DNA of 64,000 nt from a virus: the IMG/VR virus record IMGVR_UViG_3300045988_140928, positions 1 to 64,000 of that record; one strand, given 5' to 3'. This document shows, in pieces, positions 20,891 through 64,000 of the stretch. Numbering within the stretch: the stretch's first letter is position 1; each line of letters opens with the position of its first letter. The notes under the pieces were generated by a model, which was given only the letters and a program-made list of their open reading frames with translations, did no database searches and had not been told where the DNA came from. The position numbers were made by a program, and so were the translations under genes.

Positions 20891-22747
20891 TTATACCTCT
20901 TTATCTTTCTTTAAATGTTTAGCTAATTTAGATTCTTTCCAAATCTTACCAGTTTTTCGATCTCTAATCAAGCGTTCTTCTGTATCACCTACTGAGTAAT
21001 GAACACTATCTTGTTTAGGGTAAGGTTCAATATCAAACTTTAAGGTCTTACGAGCTTGCTTCTTAAATATTTTTGAACCTAAGAACATGATATAACGATA
21101 CTTGATAGGACTAATTATCATATATCTATAATAATGCCCTTTCTCCCACACGCCACCATGCTTACCATAACCATTCCAAGAATATTCACGATGTTTAGTA
21201 GTTCCACAGTATAAAAAGTTAGTAGCTTGATAAATTGCTCCTGTATGGTGCATACCTTGATCAGCAAAAGAAATAATAAACCAATTACCATCTTGTTCTT
21301 GCTTTAACTGTCTTAAAGTCCACGAAACAAACTTAGACGTAATATTCTTTAAGTTTTGACTTACCTCGTCTTTAATGTATAGTCGGGATAATTCTAGGGT
21401 ATTGTCTTTAGTGGCTAAAGGCGAAATAGACTGAGCAAGACTAATTCTAGGTCTGGTATATGTTACCATACCTGCTAAACTTCCCCTATAATATAAACCA
21501 TAGCAATAAGAAGTAGTAACTCTACGATGTAAATAATGGTATTTAATCATTAGTTCGTCTAACTCACTGCTATCTACCTTTCTAAATTCAACGTCACTAG
21601 ACTTATCTACTAAAGGTAAAAGATAATAATCTAACGTATCCTTAATATTTTCATTATATTTAATCCTAATTAAGTTAATACCATTTTTCTTACAATAGTT
21701 ATCTTTCATCCTATCGTGTTTCTTTTGCAGTTCATAGCGCTCTTTACCTCCGAATAAGTCAATAGGCTTAAAGTGCTGTTGACCATCATACTCAACAGCA
21801 GTATTGAATTGAGGTAGCCAAAAATCAAAATGAAGATTTTTCTTATCTATTAAATCTGGAATTAAATAACCATAAGAGTAACTAAGCTTATGGTTGGCTA
21901 AATAATTCATAATTGCCTGTTCACCATTAGAAGAACCACAATTAGGACACAAACCCCTATTAGCGCTAAGTTGTCCCCATGTAGTCTTAAACACAGTACC
22001 ACATGCACTATGTCTTACATAAATAGGGCTTTGATTATTTTTATAATCACCACTTACGTATGTATAACGACCGTCAGCAACCTTTGAAATACGTTGTTTA
22101 ACTTCGTCTAAGGATAATCTACATCTGTCACCTGTTGCCTTATTAGCACAAAATTTACAACGATAACCATGTATAAAGCTATAGTCTCTAACCCAATATT
22201 CATTTCCACATTCTCTATGTAGTAAATGTAACCACAATCCTTCCTTTTTAGTTCTCTTAGTTCCTAATAATTCATATTTGCCTTTTCCTAAATCTTTAAC
22301 CTCTTTAATTACTTTATTAGGTGTTTTAGGAGCATTTCCTGCACAATTAGGACACCCTTTGCCTTTTAATAGATTAACTGGAAGGGGCGTCCATTCACCC
22401 TTTGAGCCATAGCCACATACAAGACACTTCGCTTTTGTCTTCTTAAAAATACCATGTATAGGCTCAAGTAAAATAATATCATCATTAGGGCGAACTTTAT
22501 GTAGTCTATTCTTAAACTCTTCGTCTGTTAACATACGACTATTAGATCTTTTCCTCATACTACAGTGCTTGCATTTTGCTTTACCTCTAAAAATATTATC
22601 GGGAATTAAAGTTCCAGTAGTACCACAAACTAAATGTTTATACTTAACAGGTGTCTTCATATCCTTATAAGGAGGATAAAAAACATAACTAGAACCTAGC
22701 ATACGTTGTGCCCTATAATTAAATTCGTCAAAAGTTAATTTTTTCAA
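20891..22747 (-). CDS. fusion protein: 4 Zn-ribbon modules + Vsr/DUF559-like PD-(D/E)XK nuclease + Mom-like (GNAT-fold) domain
   Basis: 618 aa. Nuclease core HFDFWLP..AVEYDGQQHF..RMKDNYC..INLIRIKY. C-terminal motifs YHYLHR, LELSRLYI, ISFADQGMHHTGAIYQATNFLYCGTT. TTG start with RBS GAAGGGG. Confidence 0.7.
   Translation of the reverse strand: MKKLTFDEFNYRAQRMLGSSYVFYPPYKDMKTPVKYKHLVCGTTGTLIPDNIFRGKAKCKHCSMRKRSNSRMLTDEEFKNRLHKVRPNDDIILLEPIHGIFKKTKAKCLVCGYGSKGEWTPLPVNLLKGKGCPNCAGNAPKTPNKVIKEVKDLGKGKYELLGTKRTKKEGLWLHLLHRECGNEYWVRDYSFIHGYRCKFCANKATGDRCRLSLDEVKQRISKVADGRYTYVSGDYKNNQSPIYVRHSACGTVFKTTWGQLSANRGLCPNCGSSNGEQAIMNYLANHKLSYSYGYLIPDLIDKKNLHFDFWLPQFNTAVEYDGQQHFKPIDLFGGKERYELQKKHDRMKDNYCKKNGINLIRIKYNENIKDTLDYYLLPLVDKSSDVEFRKVDSSELDELMIKYHYLHRRVTTSYCYGLYYRGSLAGMVTYTRPRISLAQSISPLATKDNTLELSRLYIKDEVSQNLKNITSKFVSWTLRQLKQEQDGNWFIISFADQGMHHTGAIYQATNFLYCGTTKHREYSWNGYGKHGGVWEKGHYYRYMIISPIKYRYIMFLGSKIFKKQARKTLKFDIEPYPKQDSVHYSVGDTEERLIRDRKTGKIWKESKLAKHLKKDKEV
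20950..21600 (-). repeat. dispersed direct repeat, about 650 bp (Mom-like segment, copy 1)
   Basis: About 85-90% nucleotide identity by eye to 54310..54955. An example shared stretch is gggtaaggttcaatatcaaactttaaggtcttacgagcttgcttcttaaa. Confidence 0.8.
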
Positions 22748-23930: not shown

Positions 23931-23964
23931 CAAACAAAAAGAGGTGTCTAATTTAATAGGCACC
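23931..23964 (-). terminator. terminator hairpin after HE-like gene
   Basis: GGUGCCUA/UAGACACC (one mismatch) followed by CUUUUUGUUUG. It overlaps the TAG stop. Confidence 0.5.
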
Positions 23965-24965
23965 TAATTAATATACTTTTCTAATACTCTTTTTATCTCT
24001 CTATAGGTAGTTACAGTATATGGAATTCTAATTAATTTAATATTATGCTCTCTACAATATTGATCTTTTTTTCTATCATTATGTACCTGCTTTCTAAAAG
24101 CTTCATCTCCACCAAAATAACTTCGAGGTTTAAAATGCTGAATACCATCATACTCTATAGCCGAATTAGATTCAGGAAGATAAAAGTCAAAATGCAGTTT
24201 ATTGGGAAGTATATATCCATAAATAAAACTAATATTAGTACGAACTAACCAACTCTTTACTAGAGATTCTCCTCTTGATATATGCTCACATCTACATCTA
24301 TTACCACGTAAAAAATGGTCAGGTCTAACACTATACACACGACCACAAGTCATATGCTTAATTTTAATAGGATTACTACTACCTGTATATTTTCCAATAA
24401 CTTTGTACTCCCCATCCGTAAGATCATAGACTTCCTTCTTAAATTGACTTGTAGACTTTCTCCTTTTACTAGCTAAAGCCTTTCTTTGTTTAATCTGTGC
24501 AATAGACAAACCATTAATTAAATGCTTCTCCTGCTCACGTTTTAATTGATACCTGTGATTCTCTCTTTCTAAACTTTCACAGATCGAACAATGAATCCCA
24601 TTCTGCTTAAAAGACTTAGGTGTGATTAAATAAGAGTGGTTACAACTACGATGAATCAAGCGCACCTTAACCGTATTACCTTGATAAGGAGTAAGTGGAT
24701 CTAAGTACCATTGATTATTAGTTTTAATTTTAATCAACTGCTCAAATGTTTGAGTTGCTCTATGATGATTCGCTGAACAGTAGGGACAGCGTTTGCCTGC
24801 TAGAAAATTATGAGGCGAAACTGAATAAACCCTACCACACTTATTATGCTCCATTAATAACTTGGTATGAGCATTAACATATGTATTAGACTTTACTGTG
24901 TACTCGTTACCTACTAAATTGTAAACTTCCTGCTTAAATTCTTCTATTGTTTTTCTTCTACTCAT
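23964..24965 (-). CDS. free-standing HE-like protein (Zn-ribbon modules + Vsr/DUF559-like nuclease)
   Basis: 333 aa. Core HFDFYLPESNSAIEYDGIQHF..RKKDQYC..IKLIRIPY. RBS TAGGAGG. Confidence 0.7.
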   Translation of the reverse strand: MSRRKTIEEFKQEVYNLVGNEYTVKSNTYVNAHTKLLMEHNKCGRVYSVSPHNFLAGKRCPYCSANHHRATQTFEQLIKIKTNNQWYLDPLTPYQGNTVKVRLIHRSCNHSYLITPKSFKQNGIHCSICESLERENHRYQLKREQEKHLINGLSIAQIKQRKALASKRRKSTSQFKKEVYDLTDGEYKVIGKYTGSSNPIKIKHMTCGRVYSVRPDHFLRGNRCRCEHISRGESLVKSWLVRTNISFIYGYILPNKLHFDFYLPESNSAIEYDGIQHFKPRSYFGGDEAFRKQVHNDRKKDQYCREHNIKLIRIPYTVTTYREIKRVLEKYIN

Positions 24966-41313: not shown

Positions 41314-42459
41314 TCAGTCTGCATAATGAGTCTGAACATGGTTTTGAGCCTCGATCTTATCTAGGGTTTCCGATACCAATTTGCTAATACTTGATAAAGT
41401 ATCGTAAGTGTATTTTATCCTTAAAAGATTAATATTATTATCTAAACAAAATTGATCTTTTATTCTATCGTGTTTAACTAAGTCTGTAGAATAAAATTTA
41501 GAACCTCTATCAAAATGCTGTTTACCATCATATTCTATACATAAATTATAGTCTGGTAAATAAAAATCAAAGGGAAGCCTACGCTTATCTCTACACCCGT
41601 CAAACTTAAATTCTCTACAATACTCGATACTTAACTTATCCAATACCTTAGCAACCATAGAATTACCGTGACTAGATCCATGTTGAAAACACCAAGGGCA
41701 ACGGTGACCACTACCTATAAAATCATAAGGAATCATACTAAAACTCTTCCTACATATTTTATGCTTAAAAACAACTTTAGTCTTAGCATTTTTATATTTA
41801 CTCAATACTGTATAGTCACCATCAGTTAAGTTACATACAGTCTCTTCAAATTCTTGCTGTGTCCTTCTATGCTTTCCAAAACATCGAGGGCATCTTTCTC
41901 CTCCTAAGAAAGCAGTAGGACTAACCATATACACATTCCCACAAGAAAAATGTTTAACCTTGACCTTTGTATGTGAATTTTTATATACACTTAATAATTT
42001 ATAATCATCTTTTGCAACATAATAGAAGTCATGTTCAAACTGCTTAGGTGTTTTTCTAACTCCCCCTTTGCATCGAGGACATCTAGCACCCCGCAAAAAA
42101 GCACTAGGTGATACCTCATATTCATTCCCACACTTATTATGTTTCATCAAAATTTTAGTATTACTACCTACATATTCACCTAAAATAGAATATTCATTTC
42201 CTACTAAATTATATACCCTATCTCTAAATTCATCTGTAGTAAGTCTACACTTGATTCCTTTTTCTTTATCTGAGCAATAAAGACAAGTAGCTCCCCTATA
42301 AATATTACTAGGAAACATTAAGTTAATATGACCACATTTTAAATGCTTAACCCTAACTCTCGTAGTTGAGTTAACATACTTATCCAAAATAGCGTAATCG
42401 GAACCTAAAGCTCTAGTTGCCCTCTGAAGAAATTCTTCATTAGTTAATTTCCTAGACAT
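41314..42459 (-). CDS. free-standing HE-like protein (4 Zn-ribbon modules + Vsr/DUF559-like nuclease)
   Basis: 381 aa. Core LPFDFYLPDYNLCIEYDGKQHF..RIKDQFC..INLLRIKY. The C-terminus IEAQNHVQTHYAD duplicates the sheath C-terminus. Confidence 0.7.
   Translation of the reverse strand: MSRKLTNEEFLQRATRALGSDYAILDKYVNSTTRVRVKHLKCGHINLMFPSNIYRGATCLYCSDKEKGIKCRLTTDEFRDRVYNLVGNEYSILGEYVGSNTKILMKHNKCGNEYEVSPSAFLRGARCPRCKGGVRKTPKQFEHDFYYVAKDDYKLLSVYKNSHTKVKVKHFSCGNVYMVSPTAFLGGERCPRCFGKHRRTQQEFEETVCNLTDGDYTVLSKYKNAKTKVVFKHKICRKSFSMIPYDFIGSGHRCPWCFQHGSSHGNSMVAKVLDKLSIEYCREFKFDGCRDKRRLPFDFYLPDYNLCIEYDGKQHFDRGSKFYSTDLVKHDRIKDQFCLDNNINLLRIKYTYDTLSSISKLVSETLDKIEAQNHVQTHYAD
41317..41355 (-). repeat. direct repeat B (copy of the sheath gene 3' end)
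   Basis: ATCGAGGCTCAAAACCATGTTCAGACTCATTATGCAGAC compared with 42576..42614. The differences are mostly synonymous. Confidence 0.7.
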
Positions 42460-47540: not shown

Positions 47541-48638
47541 TTATAAAACAGCCTTTAAGAACTTCTTAATACCTTGGGGTGTATTAATTTTATAAGGAAT
47601 TCTAATTAAATAAATACCATGTGACTGACAATACCAGTCCTTTATGTGGTCACGTAACTTAGCCTCTCTAAAGTCATCTACTGTTCGCTGAAAATGATTT
47701 CTTTGAAAATGCTGTATACCATCGTATTCAATAGCAACCCCTATCTTGGGTAACCAAAAATCAAAAGGTAGTGTTCTTTTATATCTACACTGCTCAAATC
47801 TCTTTTGTATTTCATAAGCTATCCCCATCTTATCTAATACAGACTTAATATATTTCTCTCCAGTAGACTCATTACAATAAGGGCAACCAGTATTATTCTT
47901 AAGCAACCCAGTAGGTTGTGCTATAAATGTATGACCACAGATATTATGCTTAAACAATAGACGCTTTTGAGGTTTATAATCTTCTACTAAAGTATATTCA
48001 CCATGATAAATTTTGTTTAACTTATAATTATATTCGTCCTTAGTATATACATGATAAGTCTGGCACCTAGGACAACCCTTTAAATAATAAAAAGAATGGG
48101 GAGTTATCATCCATACATAGCCACATCTATTACACTGACACCTTATTCTTACTTCGTTACCTTGATAAGAATCCAAAAACTTAAACTGCCCATTATTTTT
48201 ACTTTCAACTCTCCTATAAAAATCATCTGAGGGGACTGATACTGCATGATTACAATAGGGACAACCAGTACCCCTAAAAAGATTATGAGCAATCGGATGA
48301 AAGATACGTCCACATTTTAGACACTTAACATCTAACCGTTCGTTAGCAAAAGTATACTTACTTAATACTACATACCTTCCATGATTAACTTTAGCAATCT
48401 TCTTATTAAAGTCTTCCTGTGTATAGGTCTGTTTCAAAACTCTACTTACTAACCCACACTTAGGGCAACGTTGTCTCCGTAAAAATGAATTAGGTGTCAT
48501 ATAAAATACATTACCACAGTCTATATGATAAAAAGCAACCTTAATCTTACTATTTTTATATGTAGTTAATGGAATAAACTCTTCACCTACTAAATTCTGA
48601 ACTTCCTCAGTAAATTCTTCATTAGTTTTTCTTCTCAT
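47541..48638 (-). CDS. free-standing HE-like protein (Zn-ribbon modules + Vsr/DUF559-like nuclease)
   Basis: The start is set at MRRKTNEEF. Core LPFDFWLPKIGVAIEYDGIQHF..KLRDHIKDWYC..IYLIRIPY. Confidence 0.7.
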   Translation of the reverse strand: MRRKTNEEFTEEVQNLVGEEFIPLTTYKNSKIKVAFYHIDCGNVFYMTPNSFLRRQRCPKCGLVSRVLKQTYTQEDFNKKIAKVNHGRYVVLSKYTFANERLDVKCLKCGRIFHPIAHNLFRGTGCPYCNHAVSVPSDDFYRRVESKNNGQFKFLDSYQGNEVRIRCQCNRCGYVWMITPHSFYYLKGCPRCQTYHVYTKDEYNYKLNKIYHGEYTLVEDYKPQKRLLFKHNICGHTFIAQPTGLLKNNTGCPYCNESTGEKYIKSVLDKMGIAYEIQKRFEQCRYKRTLPFDFWLPKIGVAIEYDGIQHFQRNHFQRTVDDFREAKLRDHIKDWYCQSHGIYLIRIPYKINTPQGIKKFLKAVL

Positions 48639-48699
48639 AACTTCCATACCTTTCAAATATTTCGATATAACTAAAATAAATAGGAATAATCCCATTTAT

Positions 48700-49753: not shown

Positions 49754-51994
49754 CTAATTAAATTTAATAATAGGACCATCAACTTGATACAATTGCTTAA
49801 CCAACTTTGGGGTAAACTCAGTTTCATTATTCTCAATACAGAACTTATACCAAGGTTCAGCTCCATAATGCCATGAGGTCTTTTCTCTACCTTTATTATA
49901 CTGATCTAAAGCTTGGCGCAACTCTTTTGCCTTTAAGTAAAAAGGTGATTTCCACTTTAATAATTTGTTCTGACCATAAAGAACTAATCCTTCTCGTAAA
50001 GGATATTTTTCATTATAATCTTTAATCATTTCCTCTAGTTCAGCTTTATTCTTAGCAACGCCAATCTTAGTTTCGTCATTAATAACTTGCATTAATTTAG
50101 CACGGGCTGGATTATCAGCTTGTAATAATGAGTCTACTACCTTCCCTTGTGTATTATTAGTAATTACTGCTAAAGGAATTGCAGTCTTCTCTGTATACAA
50201 CTCAATATGAGGATTGTTAATTGGATCTATGATTTCAAAAACAACAGTCGTATTCTGATTAGCAAGATCAGAAAAATACTCATTCTTAAGAAATTCCCAA
50301 TACGTTTGGTGACGTGTATTAGGGAAAGGAATATCTTTTAAAACCTGTTCCCCAAACAAAGAATAAGTATAGTCACCGGCTTTTGAATAACATTTAACCT
50401 GTTTAAATTTTTTATCATAGAAAGTATATACAGGAAAACCATTCCACTTACGGGCTACCTCTACTGGATATTTAATAGTGCCTAAACTGTCTTGGGAACC
50501 CCGCTCATCAATAGCAAAGAATTTATCAAACCCACGTCCAATAATTTGATTATCACGAGAAAACAACCCACGTGCTTTAATTCGTTCATTGTTAAACTTA
50601 TTCTTAATAAAGATTTTAGAGTTAAAGTTATTAGCAACAATATCATGATCTAAAGAGGACTGTTTAATATCATGGTCATCAGACAACTTTTCAATTAGAG
50701 ACTTAGTATCAATCCGATCAATTTCATGTGGAATAATCTTATCTTTAGTTAAAGTAACCCAACGAAACTTATCTTCTGCTGTTAAATTAATACTATTATT
50801 TAGTACAAAATGATTAAATTGATTACGATGACCATGAATATTGAATGATAAAGGGTCTTTATAAGTACTCCATATTTTATCAACATCTCGATCATAAGGA
50901 TTATGTGTCTCATTATCTGGAACACCCATTACAAACTCTTCTTCATTAGCTAAGCCTAAAAAATTCGCAGAAGGCTCTAAACCAGCGTGAGTAATATAAA
51001 AACGCTTACGATCCCAGATAAAATAAAGATAGTCTAAAAATTTGTCTTCCATCTTATCAATTCGGCGATCAAGTTCTTTTTCTCCATACTTACTAAGTAA
51101 AACATCTAAAGTTTGGTGACCAAACTGACCAGTCTTTCTTCTTTGATTACGCCAAATCTCCCATGACAATTCATGATTTCCTCGCAAAAAGAATAAGTTA
51201 CTACCCGACAACTCACTAGTAATAAAATCAAATACCTTATCAGAAGCTGAACCACGATCTAAATAATCACCAACAAAAACATAAGCAGTTCCCGACTCAT
51301 GATTATCGAATACCTTTTCTAAAGCACTCATATCACCATGCACATCACCAATTATTTGAATCTTTTTAAACCGCTTATCAAAATCCAAAGGGCTAATATC
51401 TTGATCTAATCCATTATAAATAATACCGAATATATCGTTGTCATTAGACCCAACACTTAGAGGGGGATAGACCTCGGCAGATCTAGGTATGTTTCCACCA
51501 TTATCTAAATAACGATCAACAAACTTCTTAATAGTAGATATTTCAACTCTCTTATAAAAGCTTCTCTTATTATTATAATTACTTAATTGAGCAATTACTT
51601 GATCATACCAATCCTCACCGTACTTATGCTTGCAACGCTTAATCAGATCAGCCATAAAATCAATTACTATAACTTTATAATGATATTTCTTTACTAATTT
51701 ATTAATAGGTGACCAAGCTTTTTTGTATAACATAGTAGAGTCAAATACAGTTGTCATTCCATGCTTCATTCTATTTTCTAGCATCTCATAAGCAGTATTA
51801 AATACTTCTTTATTATATGATTGAGAAATAGATTGATCTAATCCATCTTGACCATTAATGGCAATTGTCTCTGGACTAGCATAAAGCATTCTAATATTAT
51901 CAACCTCAATCGTATAAGGTCCTAAATCATTTTGTTTAATCCAATATGACTTTCCTGAACCGGGTGCCCCTAAAGTAACAATTAATTTTCTCAT
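49754..51994 (-). CDS. Pnkp-like RNA repair protein: P-loop kinase + metallophosphoesterase + ligase/nucleotidyltransferase domain
   Basis: - Kinase: GAPGSGKS.
- Phosphoesterase: GDVHGD, GDYLDRG, GNHE, HGH.
- Ligase: KWNG (motif I), EGLVLY (IV), LLKWKS (V).
- Start ATG at 51992..51994 after GGGAGG. Confidence 0.7.
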   Translation of the reverse strand: MRKLIVTLGAPGSGKSYWIKQNDLGPYTIEVDNIRMLYASPETIAINGQDGLDQSISQSYNKEVFNTAYEMLENRMKHGMTTVFDSTMLYKKAWSPINKLVKKYHYKVIVIDFMADLIKRCKHKYGEDWYDQVIAQLSNYNNKRSFYKRVEISTIKKFVDRYLDNGGNIPRSAEVYPPLSVGSNDNDIFGIIYNGLDQDISPLDFDKRFKKIQIIGDVHGDMSALEKVFDNHESGTAYVFVGDYLDRGSASDKVFDFITSELSGSNLFFLRGNHELSWEIWRNQRRKTGQFGHQTLDVLLSKYGEKELDRRIDKMEDKFLDYLYFIWDRKRFYITHAGLEPSANFLGLANEEEFVMGVPDNETHNPYDRDVDKIWSTYKDPLSFNIHGHRNQFNHFVLNNSINLTAEDKFRWVTLTKDKIIPHEIDRIDTKSLIEKLSDDHDIKQSSLDHDIVANNFNSKIFIKNKFNNERIKARGLFSRDNQIIGRGFDKFFAIDERGSQDSLGTIKYPVEVARKWNGFPVYTFYDKKFKQVKCYSKAGDYTYSLFGEQVLKDIPFPNTRHQTYWEFLKNEYFSDLANQNTTVVFEIIDPINNPHIELYTEKTAIPLAVITNNTQGKVVDSLLQADNPARAKLMQVINDETKIGVAKNKAELEEMIKDYNEKYPLREGLVLYGQNKLLKWKSPFYLKAKELRQALDQYNKGREKTSWHYGAEPWYKFCIENNETEFTPKLVKQLYQVDGPIIKFN

Positions 51995-51995
51995 T

Positions 51996-52721
51996 TCATA
52001 ACCTCCCATCTACAATAGCAAAAGGGTCAATTAAAGACGTAGGCAAGTCATTAGTTATACCATCTCCAATATAATAGCCAATAAAGTCGTCAACTGGAGT
52101 CACGTCTTTTGTATAGTCTGGTCTAGTAGCTAATAATTCGACATGACGAGGATTATTACTCTCTACTAACCGATGTTTTACATAGTTACTAATAGGATAA
52201 ATTCGATAGAGTAAATCGGTTCTAACTTGTCCTAGAGTTAAGAAATTATCAACCCAGAAATTCTTCTGCTTTTTAGTATGCTTATCGTTAGAAAGTAAAT
52301 CCTCTTGTAATTCTCTAAAAGTCCAAAGACCAGTTTCACGACCCTTTAGCTCTTCAATCAAAAATCCAAAGAATTGGTCTGCTAAATAACCTTCGGGATC
52401 AGCAATCTTAGAATTACGGTCTGGATAGAGAGTTTCCTTATAATTCTTTTCGGGACTATAAAGACGAGTAATAGTCTCAGCGTCATAAGTATGGTATTTA
52501 TGAACATTAACCCGATCTAAATAAACCTTAGGGTAAACACCAATAAAGCCCCGTTTATAAGCACGAGACATACAAATATTACAGAGCTTTTCATCTTTAT
52601 ATTCCCGTACATCTTTTACATCTGGATTAGCATTATAGTTTTCACGACACAAAGAATGATTATGATCCTCTGGATCAACTATGTGCCATTTCTTTTGTAT
52701 ACCTAATCGAAAAATTTTCAT
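51996..52721 (-). CDS. hypothetical protein, translationally coupled to the Pnkp-like gene
   Basis: 241 aa. ATGA-type overlaps at both ends. Confidence 0.55.
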   Translation of the reverse strand: MKIFRLGIQKKWHIVDPEDHNHSLCRENYNANPDVKDVREYKDEKLCNICMSRAYKRGFIGVYPKVYLDRVNVHKYHTYDAETITRLYSPEKNYKETLYPDRNSKIADPEGYLADQFFGFLIEELKGRETGLWTFRELQEDLLSNDKHTKKQKNFWVDNFLTLGQVRTDLLYRIYPISNYVKHRLVESNNPRHVELLATRPDYTKDVTPVDDFIGYYIGDGITNDLPTSLIDPFAIVDGRL

Positions 52722-52949: not shown

Positions 52950-53297
52950 TTAATAAGATAACGTAGGTAAATTAATAAAATCAACTTTAACATCTTTTGG
53001 GGGTTCACTAATTGCTTTAACACAAGCTTTTAAAATTTCTTGCATTCCATCCCACTTAGCAACGTACTCTTCTGAAATATCCCAAACCCATTCATTGTGA
53101 GTTGTATTAAAGGCTTGTCTAAGAGGACTGGCATAAATATAATACTTAAAATTTAAATTAATAAAACCAACACTACAATAAGAAAGCTGACTAATCTCAC
53201 TAACTTTATCAAGTATATACTTCTTATCCTTACCCTCAAAATATTTAGTTACGTCAACACCCACAGGATTTTCATAGTTGAATGGCTCTACACTCAT
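52950..53297 (-). CDS. hypothetical protein
   Basis: 115 aa, preceded by the conserved cassette leader. Confidence 0.55.
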   Translation of the reverse strand: MSVEPFNYENPVGVDVTKYFEGKDKKYILDKVSEISQLSYCSVGFINLNFKYYIYASPLRQAFNTTHNEWVWDISEEYVAKWDGMQEILKACVKAISEPPKDVKVDFINLPTLSY

Positions 53298-53360
53298 TAT
53301 TATACTTCCTTTCCTTAACTTATGTTTTCAACATAACACTTTTAGCTAAATATTCAACTT
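53298..53360 (-). promoter_or_regulatory. degenerate copy of the repeated promoter cassette
   Basis: Same leader and -35 TTGAAT (53352..53357). The -10 is weakened to TATGTT. Confidence 0.45.
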
Positions 53361-53395
53361 TCTAGCATAACTATTTCTACTATTGATATGCTATC

Positions 53396-53632
53396 CTACT
53401 TGTTTTTTAATTCTTCTCGTGTTTTAGCAGTTTCTTTATCATTTTCAGCGTCTTCATTACTCTGTTCATTTGATGAATTATCAAACTCAATATCAGTGCC
53501 GAAACAATTAAGTACAAAACACGTAAGCACTCCAGAGATAATTGCCATTAGTATTGAATACCCAAACCAAGCACCCATTACAAATTGAATTACCGAAATA
53601 TAACCAGCCGTTGAAGTCTTAATCATTCTCAT
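53396..53632 (-). CDS. small membrane protein with acidic tail
   Basis: 78 aa, with hydrophobic stretches in the first 45 residues, preceded by the cassette leader. Confidence 0.55.
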   Translation of the reverse strand: MRMIKTSTAGYISVIQFVMGAWFGYSILMAIISGVLTCFVLNCFGTDIEFDNSSNEQSNEDAENDKETAKTREELKNK

Positions 53633-53700
53633 TTTAATTACTTCCTTTCCTTAACTTATGTTTTAAGTATAACACTTTTAGTTAAATATTCAACTACTTT
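53633..53700 (-). promoter_or_regulatory. repeated promoter cassette with conserved leader
   Basis: -35 TTGAAT at 53688..53693, -10 TATACT at 53666..53671, with TG upstream. Confidence 0.65.
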
Positions 53701-53718
53701 TGTACAAAAAAGTAAAAT

Positions 53719-53739
53719 AAAAAAGACTGAATAACAGTC
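53719..53739 (-). terminator. terminator after the HE/Mom-like gene
   Basis: GACUG/CAGUC stem followed by UUUUUU. Confidence 0.45.
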
Positions 53740-53751
53740 ATTTACTCTAAA

Positions 53752-56115
53752 CTAACTAATTAAGTATGTAGCTAAAGGTTGGTAAGCAGTCTTATAATGC
53801 TTAACTATATCCTTAGGACTAGGAATATCAATTGTATGGCCTTTAACCTCTCTACGGTTAACATCAATGGCCTTATGAATAGAAGAACGACTAGCACCTA
53901 CAATCTTTCTAACTTTAGTCATTCCCTCTACCCAGTTACCATCAACAATAAAGTCATGATTATACTTAGTACTCTTCTTAGCTTTTTCTACTAATTTTTT
54001 AGCAACCTCTGAGGTGTAATCATCTGGTCTACAAAAGACAAATCCACCAAGAGATCCTTTTTTATCCTCTAAACAATGCTTAATGTTACGTTCACCTACA
54101 CCTAAAATTTCTGCACATGACCTAATAGACTCAAATTGGAATACTTGTAAAGTCTTAGTACTAATAGCATAGACAGGAGCAAAATGCTTATTAACTTTTT
54201 TAACAACCTTAGGCTTAATAGGTTTAGCTACTTCCTCATTATCACCATTCCAGTCATAATTAGGAAATGCTTTAAGCAATTCAGTCTCTGTATAAACTTT
54301 ATTTTCTTGACGATCGCGGATTAAACGTTCTTCTGTATCGCCTACTGAGTAATGAATACTGTCTTGCTTAGGGTAAGGTTCAATATCAAACTTTAAGGTC
54401 TTACGAGCTTGCTTCTTAAAGGTTTTTGAACCTAAGAACATAATGTAACGATACTTAATTGAACGTAAAATAAAGAAACGGTAATGATGTCCTTTAACCC
54501 ATTTACCACCTTTCTTATCTGGCCCATTATAGCAGAAAATACCAGAATCTGTAGTTCCACAGTATAAGAAATTAGTAGCTTGATAGATTGCTCCAGTATG
54601 GTGCATTCCTTGATCAGCAAAAGAGATAATAAACCAATTGCCTTCTTGTTCTTTCTTTAACTGTCTTAAAGTCCATGAAACAAACCTAGAGGTAATATTC
54701 TTTAAGTTTTGACTTACTTCGTCTTTAATGTATAGTCGGGATAATTCTAGGGTGTTATCTTTATTGGCTAAAGGTGAAATTGAGAAAGCTAAGGATTTGC
54801 GAACGTGAGTATATGTAACCATTCCTACTAGTTGATTTTGGTAATACATTCCATAAGCATACTTACAAGCTACTACCCGGTGCAGGTAATGGTACTTAAC
54901 CATTAATTCATGTAATTCACTACTATCAACTTTCCTAAAGCTAACATCACTAAATTCATCTACTTTATTCATAGTTAAATCTAACCCCCTGCTTTTTAAA
55001 TAATTCATTATTTGTTCTTCTGTACTTTCAGTATAAGGTATTCTGATAAGTTCAATATTATGATCTTTACAATATTTATCCTTTAAATTATCTCTATACT
55101 GCCTATTTTTATAGCTATCTCGCTTATCAAACATTCTATTAGGCTTATAATGTTGTTCACCGTCATATTCTATGCAAAGGTTGTAATCTGGTAAATAAAA
55201 GTCAAAAGGTAATTTACGATTACTATGTGGATTTATACAATCCTCAAATCGTTTTTGAGGAATTGACTTAACCCCTCTTTTATTTAATATTCGTTCAACC
55301 ATTAATTCACCCTTAGAACGATTACAATAGGGACAACGCTCACCCCCAAGAAAGCTATAAGGGGTCATTTTAAATACTCTATTACATTTATTATGCCTAA
55401 TTAATATCTTGGTTTTACTATTTTTATATTTACCTAAAACAGTATATTCTTTATCTACTTGTTGATATACTTCCCGTTTAAATTGACTATCACTCTTTTT
55501 AGCGTTGCCATAACAATATGGGCATCTCTGACCCATTAAGAATTTAGGAGGTTTTACTTGATATACTTTTCCACATTTTAAGTGTTTAATAGTAACGTCT
55601 GTTCTAGCATTAACATAAGGAGTTATTAATTGATACTCTCCTCTATTTTCCCTCTTAACTTTATCTTCAAATTCAAGCTTACTCTTAATATTACGTACCC
55701 TACCACCCCTCTTATAACGACAAGCTGGGCATCTCTGACCTACGGTTAAGAATAAATAAGCAGACATCTTAAAAATATTACCACAATCATTATGTCTAAA
55801 AGTAAGCTTACTATCAGCATTAACATATGTATCACTTAAAAGAGTATAGTGGTTACCAACCTGCTCTCTAACTTCTTTAAGAATTTGACTATAGGTTTTC
55901 TTCTCATGGTGGTTTGACTCACAAGTAGGGCATCTAGTGCCTCTTAAAAAGTTGTTAGGAACTACTTCCCACTCAGTGTTACACTTATTATGTTTCATTA
56001 ATATTTTAGTTTTACTATTCTTATATTCACCTAAAACAGTGTATTCGTTACCTACTAAACCATATACGTCTTGCTTAAACTCTTTAGTTGTTTTTCTTCT
56101 AGTAGACCTTACCAT
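53752..56115 (-). CDS. fusion protein: Zn-ribbon modules + Vsr/DUF559-like nuclease + Mom-like domain + two NUMOD-like HTH modules
   Basis: Start ATG at 56113..56115 after AAGGAGG. Motifs: LPFDFYLPDYNLCIEYDGEQHY; YHYLHR..ISFADQGMHHTGAIYQATNFLYCGTT; C-terminal FESIRSCAEILGVGERNIKHCL and GMTKVRKIVGASRSSIHKAI. Confidence 0.7.
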   Translation of the reverse strand: MVRSTRRKTTKEFKQDVYGLVGNEYTVLGEYKNSKTKILMKHNKCNTEWEVVPNNFLRGTRCPTCESNHHEKKTYSQILKEVREQVGNHYTLLSDTYVNADSKLTFRHNDCGNIFKMSAYLFLTVGQRCPACRYKRGGRVRNIKSKLEFEDKVKRENRGEYQLITPYVNARTDVTIKHLKCGKVYQVKPPKFLMGQRCPYCYGNAKKSDSQFKREVYQQVDKEYTVLGKYKNSKTKILIRHNKCNRVFKMTPYSFLGGERCPYCNRSKGELMVERILNKRGVKSIPQKRFEDCINPHSNRKLPFDFYLPDYNLCIEYDGEQHYKPNRMFDKRDSYKNRQYRDNLKDKYCKDHNIELIRIPYTESTEEQIMNYLKSRGLDLTMNKVDEFSDVSFRKVDSSELHELMVKYHYLHRVVACKYAYGMYYQNQLVGMVTYTHVRKSLAFSISPLANKDNTLELSRLYIKDEVSQNLKNITSRFVSWTLRQLKKEQEGNWFIISFADQGMHHTGAIYQATNFLYCGTTDSGIFCYNGPDKKGGKWVKGHHYRFFILRSIKYRYIMFLGSKTFKKQARKTLKFDIEPYPKQDSIHYSVGDTEERLIRDRQENKVYTETELLKAFPNYDWNGDNEEVAKPIKPKVVKKVNKHFAPVYAISTKTLQVFQFESIRSCAEILGVGERNIKHCLEDKKGSLGGFVFCRPDDYTSEVAKKLVEKAKKSTKYNHDFIVDGNWVEGMTKVRKIVGASRSSIHKAIDVNRREVKGHTIDIPSPKDIVKHYKTAYQPLATYLIS
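54310..54955 (-). repeat. dispersed direct repeat, about 650 bp (Mom-like segment, copy 2)
   Basis: Matches 20950..21600. Confidence 0.8.
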
Positions 56116-56198
56116 TACTACTACCTCCTTACAAGTATTACTATACACCATAGTAAGTTAAATGTAAAGATGGTATATCAAATAATACAAATCAATAT

Positions 56199-56232
56199 AA
56201 AAAGACGTAAGAACTTAATCATACGTCTTTTT
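56199..56232 (-). terminator. strong terminator after the major capsid gene
   Basis: AAAAAGACGUA...UACGUCUUUUU, a hairpin flanked by A and U tracts. Confidence 0.7.
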
Positions 56233-56251
56233 ATACTTTATTAAATTCTAG

Positions 56252-57769
56252 CTAGTCGATTACACTAGAGGGAATTGACTTAGCTGTTGAGTTGTATAAT
56301 GTGTTATGGAGCAAAGCTACCCGCTTAGGGAAGATCAAAGCTAAACTTCCGTACCAGAGGTAAGCTTGATTTGTTGCAGTGCTGGTAATTGCGAGCGGGA
56401 ATTTAGTGATTGGCGCAAATTCAAGATAACGTACTGTAGTTGGACGATTTTCAATAATGAATACGTCACCAGTACCCGGAATAGTTTCGTTGTTATCTTC
56501 GAATACGATAGTACCGTCACCGGCCATCTTAGAGATAGCTACCCGACCTACAAGCCAGAATTGGTCATCACCCGGAACATCTGACTTTCTGTAAATTGCT
56601 ACATAATCAGGAATGTTAGCAACCATACGATTAAGAGTTGCAGTAATCTTAACAGTATCAGTAGGGTTCTTAACTTGAACCTTAACTTCATCAGAAGGTA
56701 ATGAGTCTTGTTGGCCTACAGCAACTACACGGTAAGTCAAGTCAACACCAACAGACTTGTTAAGAACAACTTTACCATCCTTGTCCTTCTTGTCGTCTGC
56801 CATAAACATACCAGCATCACCAGTAACAACTTCTGCCTTAACAGTTGGAGCTACTGGAGCGTCTTGATCTACAGCACCGTCCATATCAAGCTTCTTATCA
56901 AGGTCCATAATAGTTGAACCATGAAGAGCAATGTTACCACGAGCTGAAATGAACCGTTGAATATCAAGACCAACTTGCATACCAGCACCAGCTGAATTAG
57001 GTTGTAAGATACGTTGTGCGCCAAGGTGTTCGTTAACAAAATCAGCCTTAATACCTACAGGCATGTAAGCATCAGTTGGTGTACCATAACCTTGAGCAAT
57101 CTTAACAGCGGCTAAGTTAAGTGCTTGTGGCGTAAGAGAAGAACCACGCATATCAATCTTGTTATGTTCGTCCATTAACTTTTCAAGACCGTCAAACTCA
57201 AGACCTTCACCGTCTTGTTGAGCCAAGTCTGAGTCACCATAGAAAGTAGCATATTCAATAGCCTTAGCAATGTTGTTAATAGCTGAGATTTCCAACAGGA
57301 TGTTGGTATCAACAGTTGTATTAGCCCATTGCATTGCGAATGAACTACCCTTAGTGTCTACAAGGAACTTAACGTTAACAGTCTTTTGCCGTGCATGAGG
57401 TTCGTTAGAACGAAGCTTAGCAATTTCTGGTTGGAACATTTGGTGTCCTGTACGACCATGTGAGTAGTAAACAGTATACTTTTGAACTGTTTGGTTAACA
57501 GGTACCTTAGCAAGATCCTTATAGATTGTGTAATCTTCGTCTCCATAAGTAGAGATGTTAAGTTCTGGATCTAAAGCTTCCATACGATAAGCGGCACCAT
57601 CTGGTTGTGTTTCTGGTGTAATACCAGTACCAGCAGTAAAGGCTTTAACAACCCGGTCTGCCTTATCATTATTTAAAGACTTATTTAACTTGTCTTCTTG
57701 ATCTTTCTTAAAAACAGACTTTACTACAGTCTTTTTCTTTAATTCTGGCAAAATTTTCATCCTTTCCAT
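56252..57769 (-). CDS. major capsid protein
   Basis: 505 aa. Supported by position after the protease and scaffold-like genes, a strong downstream terminator, and the N-terminal pro-region motif TGITPETQPDGAAYRMEAL. Confidence 0.75.
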   Translation of the reverse strand: MERMKILPELKKKTVVKSVFKKDQEDKLNKSLNNDKADRVVKAFTAGTGITPETQPDGAAYRMEALDPELNISTYGDEDYTIYKDLAKVPVNQTVQKYTVYYSHGRTGHQMFQPEIAKLRSNEPHARQKTVNVKFLVDTKGSSFAMQWANTTVDTNILLEISAINNIAKAIEYATFYGDSDLAQQDGEGLEFDGLEKLMDEHNKIDMRGSSLTPQALNLAAVKIAQGYGTPTDAYMPVGIKADFVNEHLGAQRILQPNSAGAGMQVGLDIQRFISARGNIALHGSTIMDLDKKLDMDGAVDQDAPVAPTVKAEVVTGDAGMFMADDKKDKDGKVVLNKSVGVDLTYRVVAVGQQDSLPSDEVKVQVKNPTDTVKITATLNRMVANIPDYVAIYRKSDVPGDDQFWLVGRVAISKMAGDGTIVFEDNNETIPGTGDVFIIENRPTTVRYLEFAPITKFPLAITSTATNQAYLWYGSLALIFPKRVALLHNTLYNSTAKSIPSSVID

Positions 57770-57782
57770 TTTACCATTCGTT

Positions 57783-57801
57783 GTCTATATCTAATATAGA
57801 C
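57783..57801. other. perfect palindrome GTCTATAT-CTA-ATATAGAC upstream of the capsid gene
   Basis: 8-bp arms, located 14 nt upstream of the capsid ATG on the minus strand. Confidence 0.6.
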
Positions 57802-57826
57802 ATAAGTATGGTTTTTTAATTAAAAA

Positions 57827-58945
57827 CTAAATTTCGTTATATCTTTCAATAAAACTATCGGGAACTGTAGCACCTTTAAGTCCTCGAGTATCAGCTAAAA
57901 GACTCTTTAAAGCCCGCTTACGTTCCAAGTTAACGCCACTTTGTACACCGTCAAAGCCAAGCAATGACTTAGCAATTACATTTTCAAGAGCTTCCTTAGT
58001 AACGCCTTCTTCTTTAGGTGCTTCTACTGACTTGTCAACTGTATCTGCTTCTTCTGAACCAGTAGCAACTGCCTTACCAGTAGGGATTGACTTTTCAGCC
58101 TTATCTTCTTCTGCTGGTTCTTCAACTGATTTTTCAGCTTCATCAGCAGGTTCGTCCACAGACTTCTTAGCTTTATCTTCCTTGTCGTCTTTAGCTCCAC
58201 TGTCTGCACTATCTTCTGGTTCTTGGTTATCATCAGCAGACTTCTTAGCCTTATCCTTTTTATCAGCAGATTCTTCTACGCCAGCATCATCACCGGACTT
58301 TTCAACAGACTTTTCAGCTTGATCTTCAATAGGATCTTGCTTAGCTAAGAATGACTTAGCAATTTCCATAGAAGCCTCTGCTAATTCCTTATAAGACTTT
58401 TGCATTTCAGCCATAGTATCAACAGACTTAGTTAATGCGTCAATTACAGCATTAGTATCAAATGACTTAGAAGCTTCTTCGTGTCCCTTAGGGTCCTCAA
58501 CATCAGCTAATTCTTTATGCTGTTTAGCCTTAGTTTCTTCGGTCTTAGCGTCTGTGTTCTTTTCTACAACAGGTTCGTTTTCTGATTTTTCAGCTTCGTC
58601 AACCGACTTAGTTGACTTATCATCTTTATTACATACGCACTTGCTTAAAGGCTTGCCACACTTCTTGCAAGTTTCTTCGTCTTCTGACTTCTTAGCCTTA
58701 TCAGCAGATTCTTCTACATCATCATCGTCAACGTCTTTGGTTACCTTTTCATTATCGTCTGAAATAGTAGCTTGGTTAACATGCTTTTCAGCTTCATCTG
58801 TAGACTTAGTTGCTTCTTCTTGTGCTTTTACGTCTGAATCAGTCTTTTCAACCTCAGCAGACTTTTCTACCGTATCTTCTGTAGAAGCTAATGACTTACG
58901 AGCTTTATCAATAGCTTCCATAGCATTCTTTAATTTATCAGGCAA
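57827..58945 (-). CDS. acidic repeat-rich protein (scaffold-like) with Cys cluster
   Basis: 372 aa, highly Glu/Asp/Lys-rich, with repeated AEKS / ADKAKKS units. Contains CKKCGKPLSKCVC. It lies between the protease and capsid genes. Confidence 0.6.
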   Translation of the reverse strand: MPDKLKNAMEAIDKARKSLASTEDTVEKSAEVEKTDSDVKAQEEATKSTDEAEKHVNQATISDDNEKVTKDVDDDDVEESADKAKKSEDEETCKKCGKPLSKCVCNKDDKSTKSVDEAEKSENEPVVEKNTDAKTEETKAKQHKELADVEDPKGHEEASKSFDTNAVIDALTKSVDTMAEMQKSYKELAEASMEIAKSFLAKQDPIEDQAEKSVEKSGDDAGVEESADKKDKAKKSADDNQEPEDSADSGAKDDKEDKAKKSVDEPADEAEKSVEEPAEEDKAEKSIPTGKAVATGSEEADTVDKSVEAPKEEGVTKEALENVIAKSLLGFDGVQSGVNLERKRALKSLLADTRGLKGATVPDSFIERYNEI

Positions 58946-62911: not shown

Positions 62912-64000
62912 CAATTATATTAACTACTTATTTCTAAGTAGATTAGACTATATCTTTATCCTACTAGGATATTCCCTATATAGTCGTTAGACCTGTTTTA
63001 ACTTGGTACGGGATTAGCCTGCCTTACTTAAATTATAAGGTTTAGCTTCTCTTATCACCTTATTACGGTAAGCCCGTTTAGGGGATATTTATTTAACAGA
63101 TATTACTATCTGTGACCGCTTAAATGCTTAGTTAAAATTGATTTTATTTGTTTCTTAGTCGTAATAGTATATGGAATACGAATTAAAGTAATATCATTAT
63201 TTTTACAATAGGTGTCCTTAAGATAATCTCGATATACTAAACTTTTATAATTATCTATACCACCCCAAAAACTAATAGGCTTATAATGTTGTTCTCCATC
63301 ATATTCAATTGCTATCTTTTTATTAGGAAACCAAAAGTCAAAATGAAGATTATTCTTATACTTTAAATCTGGAATAATATACCCATAAGTAAAATCATTT
63401 CCCTCAGAATAATGGAAATCTTGGGTTAAAGACGATAATATTAATCTTTCACCGTAACTTGATCGTTCATGTAAAGCACAATAAGGGCAACCTGTATGGT
63501 TATATTGAATATCACCATACCTAGCTTCATACACAGTATTGCATACTAAATGCTTAATCTTAATATGTTGGCGATTGCCTTTATACTCATCATCTTTAGT
63601 TAGCACTACATATTCACTACCTAGAATATCTTTAATATTCTCCCTTACCTGAGATAAAGGAGTCCTTTGATTAATTCCAATCTTAGGTGAACGATCTACA
63701 TAGGAACATTTTAGGCATCCATGACCCCTCAAAAAATCAGCAGGACGTGTCATATAAATATTACCACATCTATTATGCTTAACTTTTACTAAAGTATCTG
63801 AATTTTTATATATAGATAATACGATATACTCATTACCCCACTGTTTCTTAACTCTACTTAAAAATTCGCTATTAGTCATAGTTCTTAATTTAACTCTGTG
63901 TTCCTTAGCACATTCAGGACAACGCTGACCATTCAAAAAGCTATTAGGATTCATCATAAAATGATGATTGCATTTAAGATGAATAAACTCTACCTTAGTT
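62912..64000 (-). mobile_element. group I intron (3' part) carrying an HE-like ORF, inserted in the terminase gene
   Basis: The core lies downstream of the ORF: CUAAACGGG (P3/P4 region), P7 GACUAUA/UAUAGUC, P8 AUCCU/AGGAU, S element AAGAUAUAGUC (62946..62956), P9 CUACUU/AAGUAG, terminal G at 62912. Confidence 0.8.
63106..64000 (-). CDS. intron-encoded HE-like protein (Zn-ribbon modules + Vsr/DUF559-like nuclease), 5'-truncated by the window edge
   Basis: The frame stays open to position 64000 (..LKVEFIHLKCNHHFMMNPNSFLNGQRCPEC). Core HFDFWFPNKKIAIEYDGEQHY..RDYLKDTYC..ITLIRIPY. Confidence 0.7.
   Translation of the reverse strand, partial: TKVEFIHLKCNHHFMMNPNSFLNGQRCPECAKEHRVKLRTMTNSEFLSRVKKQWGNEYIVLSIYKNSDTLVKVKHNRCGNIYMTRPADFLRGHGCLKCSYVDRSPKIGINQRTPLSQVRENIKDILGSEYVVLTKDDEYKGNRQHIKIKHLVCNTVYEARYGDIQYNHTGCPYCALHERSSYGERLILSSLTQDFHYSEGNDFTYGYIIPDLKYKNNLHFDFWFPNKKIAIEYDGEQHYKPISFWGGIDNYKSLVYRDYLKDTYCKNNDITLIRIPYTITTKKQIKSILTKHLSGHR

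Follow-up and report, generated by a model that had tools for sequence, protein, structure and literature searches.

Why would a phage gene encode a homing-type nuclease and a Mom-type DNA-modification enzyme in one polypeptide? The question is raised by an open reading frame (ORF) on the minus strand of IMG/VR record IMGVR_UViG_3300045988_140928, of which we analysed positions 1 to 64,000 (the window). Coordinates are positions in this 64-kb window, and residue numbers refer to the 787-residue frame that starts at the 56115 ATG. In our preferred explanation, to which we give moderate confidence, a resident anti-restriction Mom gene that is probably active has acquired a mobile homing-endonuclease cassette by in-frame fusion. 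Hidden Markov model (HMM) and fold matches bear out the domain order proposed in an initial annotation made from the sequence alone: Zn-ribbons, a Vsr-like core and a Mom domain, as in a second fusion in the window (copy 1), followed here by a helix-turn-helix (HTH) tail. Each proposed family was recovered, domain by domain, by HMM and/or fold comparison. The gene and its parts are listed below, with models made by AlphaFold2 (AF2) and their predicted local distance difference test (pLDDT) values where these were used.

53752–56115, minus strand: complete ORF with four Zn-ribbons, Vsr-like nuclease, Mom, linker and two HTH modules (ORF listing, Shine-Dalgarno sequence, Pfam and PHROG matches)
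55321–56115, minus strand: four tandem treble-clef Zn-ribbon repeats, residues 1–265 (DUF4379 and CapR matches in Pfam)
54973–55320, minus strand: Vsr-like PD-(D/E)XK nuclease domain, residues 266–381 (Foldseek and invariant residues)
54970–54972, minus strand: internal ATG, Met382, with AGGGGG-N12 upstream (stand-alone Mom start codon in relatives)
54241–54972, minus strand: Mom-type GNAT domain, residues 382–625 (PF25680, 8BV8 and residue mapping)
54175–54240, minus strand: Lys/Pro-rich linker, residues 626–647 (AF2 pLDDT <50; comparison with relatives P0010 and L015)
53755–54174, minus strand: DNA-binding tail of two beta-beta-helix-turn-helix modules, residues 648–787 (PF22083 and AF2)
54070–54135, minus strand: HTH1 of the tail (AF2 secondary structure)
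53866–53925, minus strand: HTH2 of the tail (AF2 secondary structure)

The N-terminal half has the make-up of a modular DNA-binding region followed by a nuclease. Its four repeats follow the pattern H...C...CPxC (CPxC at residues 62, 129, 198 and 261), with near-invariant H42/C45, H108/C111 and H178/C181, and are modelled with pLDDT ~90; we predict that they form the DNA-binding array of the endonuclease. By sequence, the domain that follows is reached through weak matches alone (DUF5889 and DUF2726). AF2 models the N-terminal half with confidence (pLDDT 90.4), and Foldseek pairs the nuclease domain of this model with Escherichia coli Vsr (1vsr/1cw0; probability 1.0, TMt 0.53–0.55) and also with the Vsr-like domains of AbaSI and PvuRts1I. 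The string LPFDFYLPDYNLCIEYDGEQHY, quoted in the initial annotation as the Vsr-like core, is indeed present and lies inside this Vsr-fold domain. Residues E270, D305, E316, G319, H322, D342 and K345 are invariant across 28 diverse homologues of the nuclease, and the motif is kept in all six nuclease-bearing paralogues of the window. The pattern E270/D305/E316/H322/D342 fits E-D-x-H-D, the five positions that define the Vsr-like 'EDxHD' homing endonucleases (PMC3239194), and alignment of the motifs suggests that these residues correspond to Vsr D51/H69/D97.

The likeness to EDxHD enzymes such as I-Bth0305I and the phage 'Hef'-type proteins (PMC3239194) extends beyond this pattern. In both cases a phage-encoded Vsr-fold nuclease stands C-terminal to a modular DNA-binding region, and the genes are free-standing, variably present and multi-copy. 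Unlike those enzymes, the window gene is not in an intron and carries a downstream Mom domain. The DNA-binding regions also differ, since I-Bth0305I has two NUMOD2 HTH repeats, whereas the window protein has no N-terminal NUMOD2/HTH repeats and four DUF4379/CapR treble-clef Zn-ribbons instead. Nuclease profiles matched, among PDB sequences, only AbaSI (E=0.15) and the endonuclease-like protein 3HRL (E=0.09); their top matches, to SAKe designer Kelch proteins containing repeats of a YDGxxH-like string, were rejected as spurious. The I-Bth0305I structure (3R3P) is absent from the Foldseek top 50 for this domain. Because the profiles miss I-Bth0305I and the DNA-binding region consists of Zn-ribbons and not NUMOD2, we describe the nuclease, on sequence and model, as EDxHD-type and Vsr-like rather than as a proven member of the EDxHD family. 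PHROG 559 and 681 annotate such proteins as 'HNH endonuclease', a label that misnames the Vsr-type half and masks the Mom domain.

The Mom assignment is supported by sequence and by fold. The domain scores 107.2 bits against PF25680 (cut-off 27.1; E=1.2e-30), spanning positions 3–202 of the 202-position profile, and copy 1 scores 106.9 bits. Phage Mu Mom (8BV8) is its sole PDB match by sequence (E=3e-10). In the AF2 model that carries the domain (pLDDT 83), the top Foldseek matches are the two 8BV8 chains (8bv8_B, E=4e-11, TMt 0.73; 8bv8_A, E=1e-10, TMt 0.67), with generic GNATs trailing at E ~1e-5. Mu Mom moves glycine from Gly-tRNA(Gly) onto N6 of adenine in double-stranded DNA, and H58, Y59, R111, S124, D149, R151 and Y159 are important or essential for it (PMC13219725). 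Six of these seven residues are kept in the window protein as H409, Y410, R460, S476, D501 and Y511, equivalent to H58, Y59, R111, S124, D149 and Y159. Among 110 Mom family members, the equivalents of H58, Y59, R111 and Y159 are invariant, that of S124 is kept in 107 and that of D149 in 106. The position of Mu R151 is Gly in the window protein and is variable across the same 110 proteins, Gly being the commonest residue. An HTH-like insertion (Mu residues ~175–209) has 30 residues against 42 in Mu and lacks an equivalent of W181; its length in the family ranges from 5 to 64 residues. The Mom domain is probably active.

The window Mom thus shares with Mu Mom a GNAT fold, six residue equivalents, an insertion at the same place and a phage genome, and is presumably likewise late and anti-restriction. 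It differs in being only ~21% identical, in being fused to a nuclease on its N-terminal side and an HTH tail on its C-terminal side, and in its two copies per genome; moreover, no Com/C-type regulation is evident. The glycine-transfer chemistry was resolved only in 2026, in a study that mined 'Mom-only' sequences; Mu Mom and the homologues studied there are Mom-only proteins (PMC13219725).

The C-terminal tail points to an endonuclease of another type. The initial annotation had proposed two HTH-like modules in a C-terminal extension, here ~180 residues, and both strings that it quoted fall on AF2 helix-turn-helix units. Their suggested resemblance to modules of HNH homing endonucleases is also borne out: scanned alone, the tail matches the I-HmuI_NUMOD-like family PF22083 at 28.1 bits, against a gathering (GA) cut-off of 27. 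The window protein has no Pfam match to NUMOD4 or HNH, and relatives P0010 and P0034 carry both; in P0010 and L015 a NUMOD4 plus HNH core of ~115 residues occupies the place of the 22-residue linker. The tail is 86–96% identical to the tails of P0003 and P0010. Like the I-HmuI-type HNH endonucleases of SPO1-like phages (NUMOD4-HNH-NUMOD-like HTH), it matches PF22083, and it is orthologous (86–87% identical) to the tail of relatives that have NUMOD4, HNH_3 and HTH behind Mom. Unlike them, the window protein keeps the DNA-binding tail only, under purifying selection. The tail has its place in the I-HmuI architecture (NUMOD4-HNH-HTH). We read it most economically as the remnant of an I-HmuI-like HNH endonuclease once fused behind Mom, whose catalytic core was later lost, the polarity of change being our inference.

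Which partner is resident and which is mobile can be judged from relatives. A search of 5.8 billion proteins returned full-length orthologues at 90% (P0001) and 65–74% (P0002–P0006) identity and many other Zn/Vsr–Mom fusions. It also returned proteins of ~500 residues that start exactly at the window's internal Met and comprise Mom, NUMOD4 plus HNH_3 and the same HTH tail. The capsid gene serves as a landmark for comparing contigs.

56252–57769, minus strand: major capsid gene, immediately upstream of the fusion gene and a conserved landmark of the insertion site (homology)

This gene ends 136 nt upstream of the fusion gene, so the latter does sit directly after the capsid gene, as the initial annotation had it. 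Seven IMG/VR contigs (L015–L021) encode capsids 96–97% identical to that of the window; one of them, L021, ends within the capsid gene and is uninformative on the site. L016–L018 have a homing endonuclease (HE) of 378 residues whose gene overlaps, through ATGA, that of a stand-alone Mom-HTH protein of 405 residues. HE is followed by a 502-residue Mom-NUMOD4/HNH-HTH protein in L015, and a 147-residue ORF is followed by HE and Mom in L020; L019 has an in-frame fusion, as in the window. In L002–L004 the order is capsid, a 147-residue HTH-only ORF, a 378-residue Zn/Vsr endonuclease and a 502-residue Mom-HNH-HTH protein. The endonuclease and Mom genes here share an overlap, CTATGA, and the Mom ATG is preceded at a distance of 9 nt by the Shine-Dalgarno sequence AAGGTGG. 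Further fused alleles occur in L001, L008, L009 and L010. The in-frame fusion thus recurs, with L019, in five independent assemblies, and we therefore rejected an assembly chimera as its source.

Across these alleles Mom (90–94% identical) and the tail (86–96%) are constant, whereas the upstream endonuclease is <45% identical or mosaic. The mosaic is exemplified by L001 (8001–10166), in which Zn-ribbons 1–2 are 90% identical to those of the window, the Vsr domain 38% and Mom 93%, the motif of its Vsr domain being closer to that of copy 1. This pattern indicates recombination between endonuclease paralogues within the ORF. Because Mom and tail stay constant and the endonuclease is replaced or mosaic, we take Mom-HTH to be the resident and the Zn/Vsr endonuclease to be the swappable partner. 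Allele swapping at a fixed site and multi-copy paralogues are seen for the Zn/Vsr endonuclease genes; the seven paralogues in the window, the three HE–Mom fusions of L013 and the gene-conversion-like tracts described below are typical of homing-endonuclease genes. The internal Met of the window would then be the ancestral Mom start codon, since the stand-alone Mom genes of relatives start there. A more diverged phage, L012, has the capsid gene, HE (373 residues), a 147-residue ORF and a stand-alone Mom-HTH gene (388 residues). Judging from L012 and from the tree of Mom sequences, the site and the HE–Mom partnership predate the group with 96–97% identical capsids. The closest isolate by capsid, LfeInf, has no endonuclease or Mom gene after the capsid gene; its gene order differs, and we rejected it as an 'empty site'.

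Two further observations concern this hot spot. An ORF of 147–152 residues recurs at it (L002, 6428–6871; L020, 4748–5191; L012, 5557–6000; L013, 6230–6688), with weak NUMOD1 and I-HmuI NUMOD-like matches and no nuclease domain in L002 and L013, and no Pfam match for the L012 copy; it looks like another orphaned DNA-binding tail of an endonuclease. L012 also carries a TnpB/IS605 OrfB gene (Cas12f-like; 1497–2663) between its scaffold-like and capsid genes, upstream of the endonuclease/Mom site.

All four modules of the fusion are under purifying selection and none is decaying. The ratio of non-synonymous to synonymous substitution rates (dN/dS) between the window and L008 is 0.05–0.18 in every module. 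Against five orthologues it is 0.06–0.26 for the Zn-ribbons, 0.05–0.09 for Mom and 0.06–0.12 for the tail; for the Vsr domain it is 0.08 (L008). The values for the tail led us to reject the idea that it is a decaying pseudogene remnant.

The ATG at the junction bears on which proteins are made. It is kept in all six fused orthologues of the locus and is the stand-alone Mom start in L002–L004, L015–L018 and L020. The initial annotation had noted this Met and the possibility of a separate Mom product; the Met is present, at residue 382, and such a product is strongly backed by the 405- and 502-residue Mom genes of relatives, which begin exactly there. The AGGGGG element 12 nt from Met382 is weaker and more distant than the AAGGTGG-N9 of the split alleles. 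On sequence, the locus could plausibly yield a 90-kDa as well as a 47-kDa product. The junction Met is confined to this orthologue group, and copy 1 and ~27 more distant Zn/Vsr–Mom fusions are seamless; hence, in these proteins the fused nuclease–Mom form must be the one that works.

The window itself holds a family of such genes, all on the minus strand.

20891–22747, minus strand: copy 1, a paralogous Zn-ribbon/Vsr–Mom fusion of 618 residues without HTH tail or junction Met
19690–20310, 20891–22747, 23964–24965, 41314–42459, 47541–48695, 53752–56115 and 63106–63957, minus strand: seven paralogues of the Zn-ribbon endonuclease family, the second and sixth being the two fusions
~54568–54753 (copy 2, the fusion studied here) and ~21215–21400 (copy 1), minus strand: near-identical Mom tract; a second tract covers residues 553–590

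Six of the seven paralogues have an intact FDF...IEYDGxQH motif and two are fused to Mom; of the five besides the fusions, four have the nuclease motif and none has Mom. The ORF at 19690–20310 (minus strand), which adjoins copy 1, has Zn-ribbons without a nuclease and is probably a degenerate copy. Between copy 1 and the fusion studied here, the Zn-ribbons share 30% of their residues and the nuclease domains 35%, against 79% for Mom, whose DNA is 77% identical. The N-terminal halves have thus diverged as the initial annotation described, whereas its description of the Mom halves as nearly identical is overstated. Near-identity is limited to two tracts, residues ~447–521 and ~553–590, which hold identical runs of 35 and 53 nt. 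Among identical residues, identical codons are used at 49 of 59 positions (83%) inside these tracts and at 73 of 120 (61%) outside them (p=0.003), a modest signal that suggests intragenomic gene conversion between the two Mom copies.

Fusions of this kind reach well beyond the locus. Among 1.84 billion representatives, a search with the Mom domain returned 1528 families, mostly stand-alone proteins of 200–260 residues; the clade nearest to the window is dominated by fusions. The architectures include Zn/Vsr–Mom, Mom-NUMOD4/HNH-HTH, NUMOD4/HNH/HTH–Mom, Mom-HTH and ParB_N-Mom. In the Mom tree the nuclease partners, of three kinds, are interspersed, and the window's two copies form sister lineages that have separate sets of orthologues. 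A 92.6-kb contig, L013, has three Zn/Vsr–Mom fusions (479, 554 and 542 residues) in 8 kb, the first just past the capsid gene. This region (L013 4781–12565, corresponding to L014 7001–14785; ERZ28614708 scaffold_36) also holds a Mom-less endonuclease of 306 residues and a 152-residue NUMOD-HTH-only ORF, and the genes of this cluster flank a tail-tube gene. Among 50,697 isolate phage records we found no fused form, just stand-alone Mom-like genes of at most 36% identity, and in the literature searched we found no account of a Mom–endonuclease fusion.

Two candidates among isolates were set aside. In Lactococcus phage AM1 (NC_049854), a 136-residue ORF (L007 4123–4533) lies directly after a Zn/Vsr endonuclease gene, and a tblastn match extends into it over Mom residues 404–469; it has no Pfam match and was not accepted as a Mom remnant. 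The match may reflect a piece of Mom or have been extended by chance. In Listeria phage LP-026 Mom stands alone, and the Zn-ribbon-like sequence downstream of it falls within an unannotated gap; this amounts to adjacency and not fusion.

We propose the following course of events. A Vsr-like homing-endonuclease gene, at first free-standing and immediately upstream of a late Mom-HTH gene resident at the site, would have joined the latter in frame. The four Zn-ribbons and the Vsr-like nuclease would be the mobile, rapidly swapped upstream module, and Mom with its two-HTH tail the resident unit, the tail deriving from an I-HmuI-like HNH endonuclease whose NUMOD4/HNH core was deleted. The fusion gene would be expressed late, alongside the structural genes. 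If Mom acts like its Mu counterpart, adenines in double-stranded phage DNA would receive glycine at N6 from Gly-tRNA(Gly); the product, carbamoylmethyl-adenine, would confer resistance to restriction, and the HTH tail may aid Mom in holding DNA. In co-infection the nuclease half would cut related phage genomes that lack the same allele, and recombinational repair would then copy both the endonuclease and the Mom gene next to it. Through the in-frame junction, driver and cargo would form one unit. Translation from the internal ATG, which has been kept, likely yields a shorter Mom-HTH product as well.

Several points weigh against this account. The activities of nuclease and Mom in this clade are predictions from sequence. 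No 'empty' allele, with capsid followed by Mom and no endonuclease between them, occurs among the relatives found, and hence no homing target site can be defined. Profiles of the nuclease built from 9 and 28 sequences did not reach I-Bth0305I (3R3P) in PDB sequences, and a profile of the tail had no PDB match, the I-HmuI structures included. The window Mom has an HTH-like insertion 12 residues shorter than the one on which Mu Mom depends. Strong conservation of the nuclease would also be expected from a domesticated, and not solely selfish, function, and the ~27 seamless fusions suggest that the covalent link may be functional rather than incidental. Such a link is at the heart of an alternative that we consider unlikely, namely that nuclease and Mom form one self/non-self system resembling restriction–modification, with the Zn-ribbon and HTH modules targeting the same sites. 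Momylated phage DNA would be immune to the phage's own Vsr-like nucleases, and unmodified host or competitor DNA would be cut, making the protein a functional analogue of single-chain Type IIG/IIL enzymes with aminoacyl-tRNA-dependent adenine hypermodification. Nearly all of the nearest Mom clade is covalently tied to nuclease modules, in three architectures; copy 1 and the ~27 fusions have no separate Mom start; the catalytic residues of both enzymes are invariant under strong purifying selection; and genomes hold several fusions with diverged DNA-binding/nuclease halves and conserved Mom halves, as this alternative would have it. However, the closest relatives have split genes in which the endonuclease allele varies and Mom is constant, which fits selfish turnover better; five of the seven Zn/Vsr paralogues in the window lack Mom; and modification-sensitive cleavage is an assumption. 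A stronger form of this idea, a class of single-chain phage 'restriction-hypermodification' enzymes in which a shared Zn-ribbon/HTH scaffold directs either hypermodification or Vsr-type cleavage, appears to us quite improbable. If it were true, modification would be self-protection and cleavage an attack on unmodified host or rival-phage DNA, the several fusions per genome would have different specificities, and the proteins would represent a new class of self/non-self discrimination and a new route for homing endonucleases to self-immunity.

The junction could also be a neutral accident of an endonuclease allele swap, the 90-kDa fusion having no role of its own and the working proteins being the endonuclease (possibly scarce or inactive) and Mom-HTH from the internal ATG. 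The retention of this ATG in every fused orthologue and its use as the stand-alone start in relatives are consistent with such read-through, as are the purine-rich AGGGGG/AAGGGG upstream of it and the stand-alone Mom-HTH gene of the diverged relative L012. This explanation is nonetheless doubtful, as the Shine-Dalgarno-like element is weaker and farther away than in the split alleles, at least five assemblies show the fused state and dN/dS stays low across the junction, and Met-less seamless fusions are common elsewhere, copy 1 of the same genome included. Highly improbable, in our judgement, is a catalytically dead Mom that serves as an extra DNA-binding or base-flipping module giving the endonuclease its target specificity. 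Vsr-like nucleases are known in fusion with base-flipping reader domains (AbaSI/PvuRts1I), and the window Mom has a shortened form of the insertion needed for Mu Mom activity and Gly in place of the essential R151. Yet the catalytic residues that are invariant in the family are all kept, the R151 position and the insertion length are themselves variable in it, the same Mom-HTH unit occurs as a stand-alone gene without nuclease, and its dN/dS is typical of an enzyme. The fusion of a mobile endonuclease to a resident Mom gene remains the reading that we prefer.

Known systems offer comparisons. T-even SegB, which amplifies anti-defence genes (PMC13096335), is likewise a free-standing endonuclease beside an anti-defence gene, with several copies of the cargo, and by analogy the endonuclease in the fusion probably spreads or duplicates its anti-defence gene as SegB does. 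The differences are that SegB is a GIY-YIG enzyme, whereas here the endonuclease is Vsr-like and translationally fused and amplification is a proposal. Type IIG/IIL restriction–modification enzymes (MmeI) and AbaSI/PvuRts1I also unite, in one polypeptide, a nuclease and a base-flipping or modifying domain. Type IIG/IIL enzymes depend on S-adenosylmethionine and Mom chemistry on aminoacyl-tRNA, and the likeness is one of analogy only, the modification domains not being homologous.

The surroundings of the gene are those of a Herelleviridae-type, Lactobacillus-type myovirus of low GC content (~35%) with nearly all genes on the minus strand. The capsid protein is 65% identical to the major head protein of Lactobacillus phage LfeInf and 56% to those of L. 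plantarum phages. A near-identity DNA search with 53000–58000 had no match among isolate phages; the window phage is known from metagenomes only. The signals around the ORF are given below.

56124–56130, minus strand: Shine-Dalgarno sequence AAGGAGG, 8 nt before the 56115 ATG (sequence reading)
56140–56168, minus strand: sigma-70-like promoter match TTTACA-17-TATAGT, weak, which would place the 56151 ATG in its spacer
53725–53739, minus strand: terminator-like hairpin and T-run, 13 nt past the stop codon (hairpin scan)

We place the start at 56115 because AAGGAGG-N8 precedes this ATG and orthologue P0003 begins at the equivalent Met, in agreement with the gene boundaries of the initial annotation; the ORF is then 787 codons plus a stop codon at 53752–53754 on the minus strand. 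The longest form of the ORF, 799 residues from the 56151 ATG, was rejected since its ATG lacks a Shine-Dalgarno sequence and falls within the promoter-like match. Promoter-like matches across the region are as frequent as in shuffled sequence, and the match is merely suggestive and carries little weight; three terminator-like hairpins were found in the region against 0.9 expected.

Of the neighbouring genes, two are described here. The ORF at 57827–58945 (minus strand) encodes a highly acidic, Lys/Glu/Asp-rich protein of 372 residues with one CKKCGKPLSKCVC motif and no PHROG match, in a scaffold-like position between protease-region genes and the capsid gene. Four genes downstream of the fusion, 49754–52009 (minus strand) encodes a 751-residue fusion of polynucleotide kinase/ATPase, metallophosphatase and T4-type RNA ligase (PHROG 8238, E=5e-99). 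This tRNA-repair-type enzyme is of possible interest since Mom uses charged tRNA. No tRNA gene was found in the window, and hence no phage tRNA-Gly.

The initial annotation was essentially correct; our corrections concern how similar the two Mom halves are and where the HTH tail comes from. The parts of the protein all come from known families; within the collections and literature searched, their combination and the allelic series are undescribed. PHROG- and RefSeq-style 'HNH endonuclease' labels conceal the Mom domain, a caution for annotation. In Firmicute myoviruses a whole Mom clade is tied to endonuclease modules (Zn/Vsr, HNH in two orientations, orphan HTH tails), and a single genome sometimes holds two or three of its members. 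The allelic series can be traced from separate overlapping genes to the in-frame fusion, in alleles that either keep or lack the HNH core. It offers a natural case of capture between a selfish nuclease and an anti-restriction gene, whichever of the two was the captor, and a ready series for asking whether fusion alters the targeting of Mom or the self-immunity of the nuclease.

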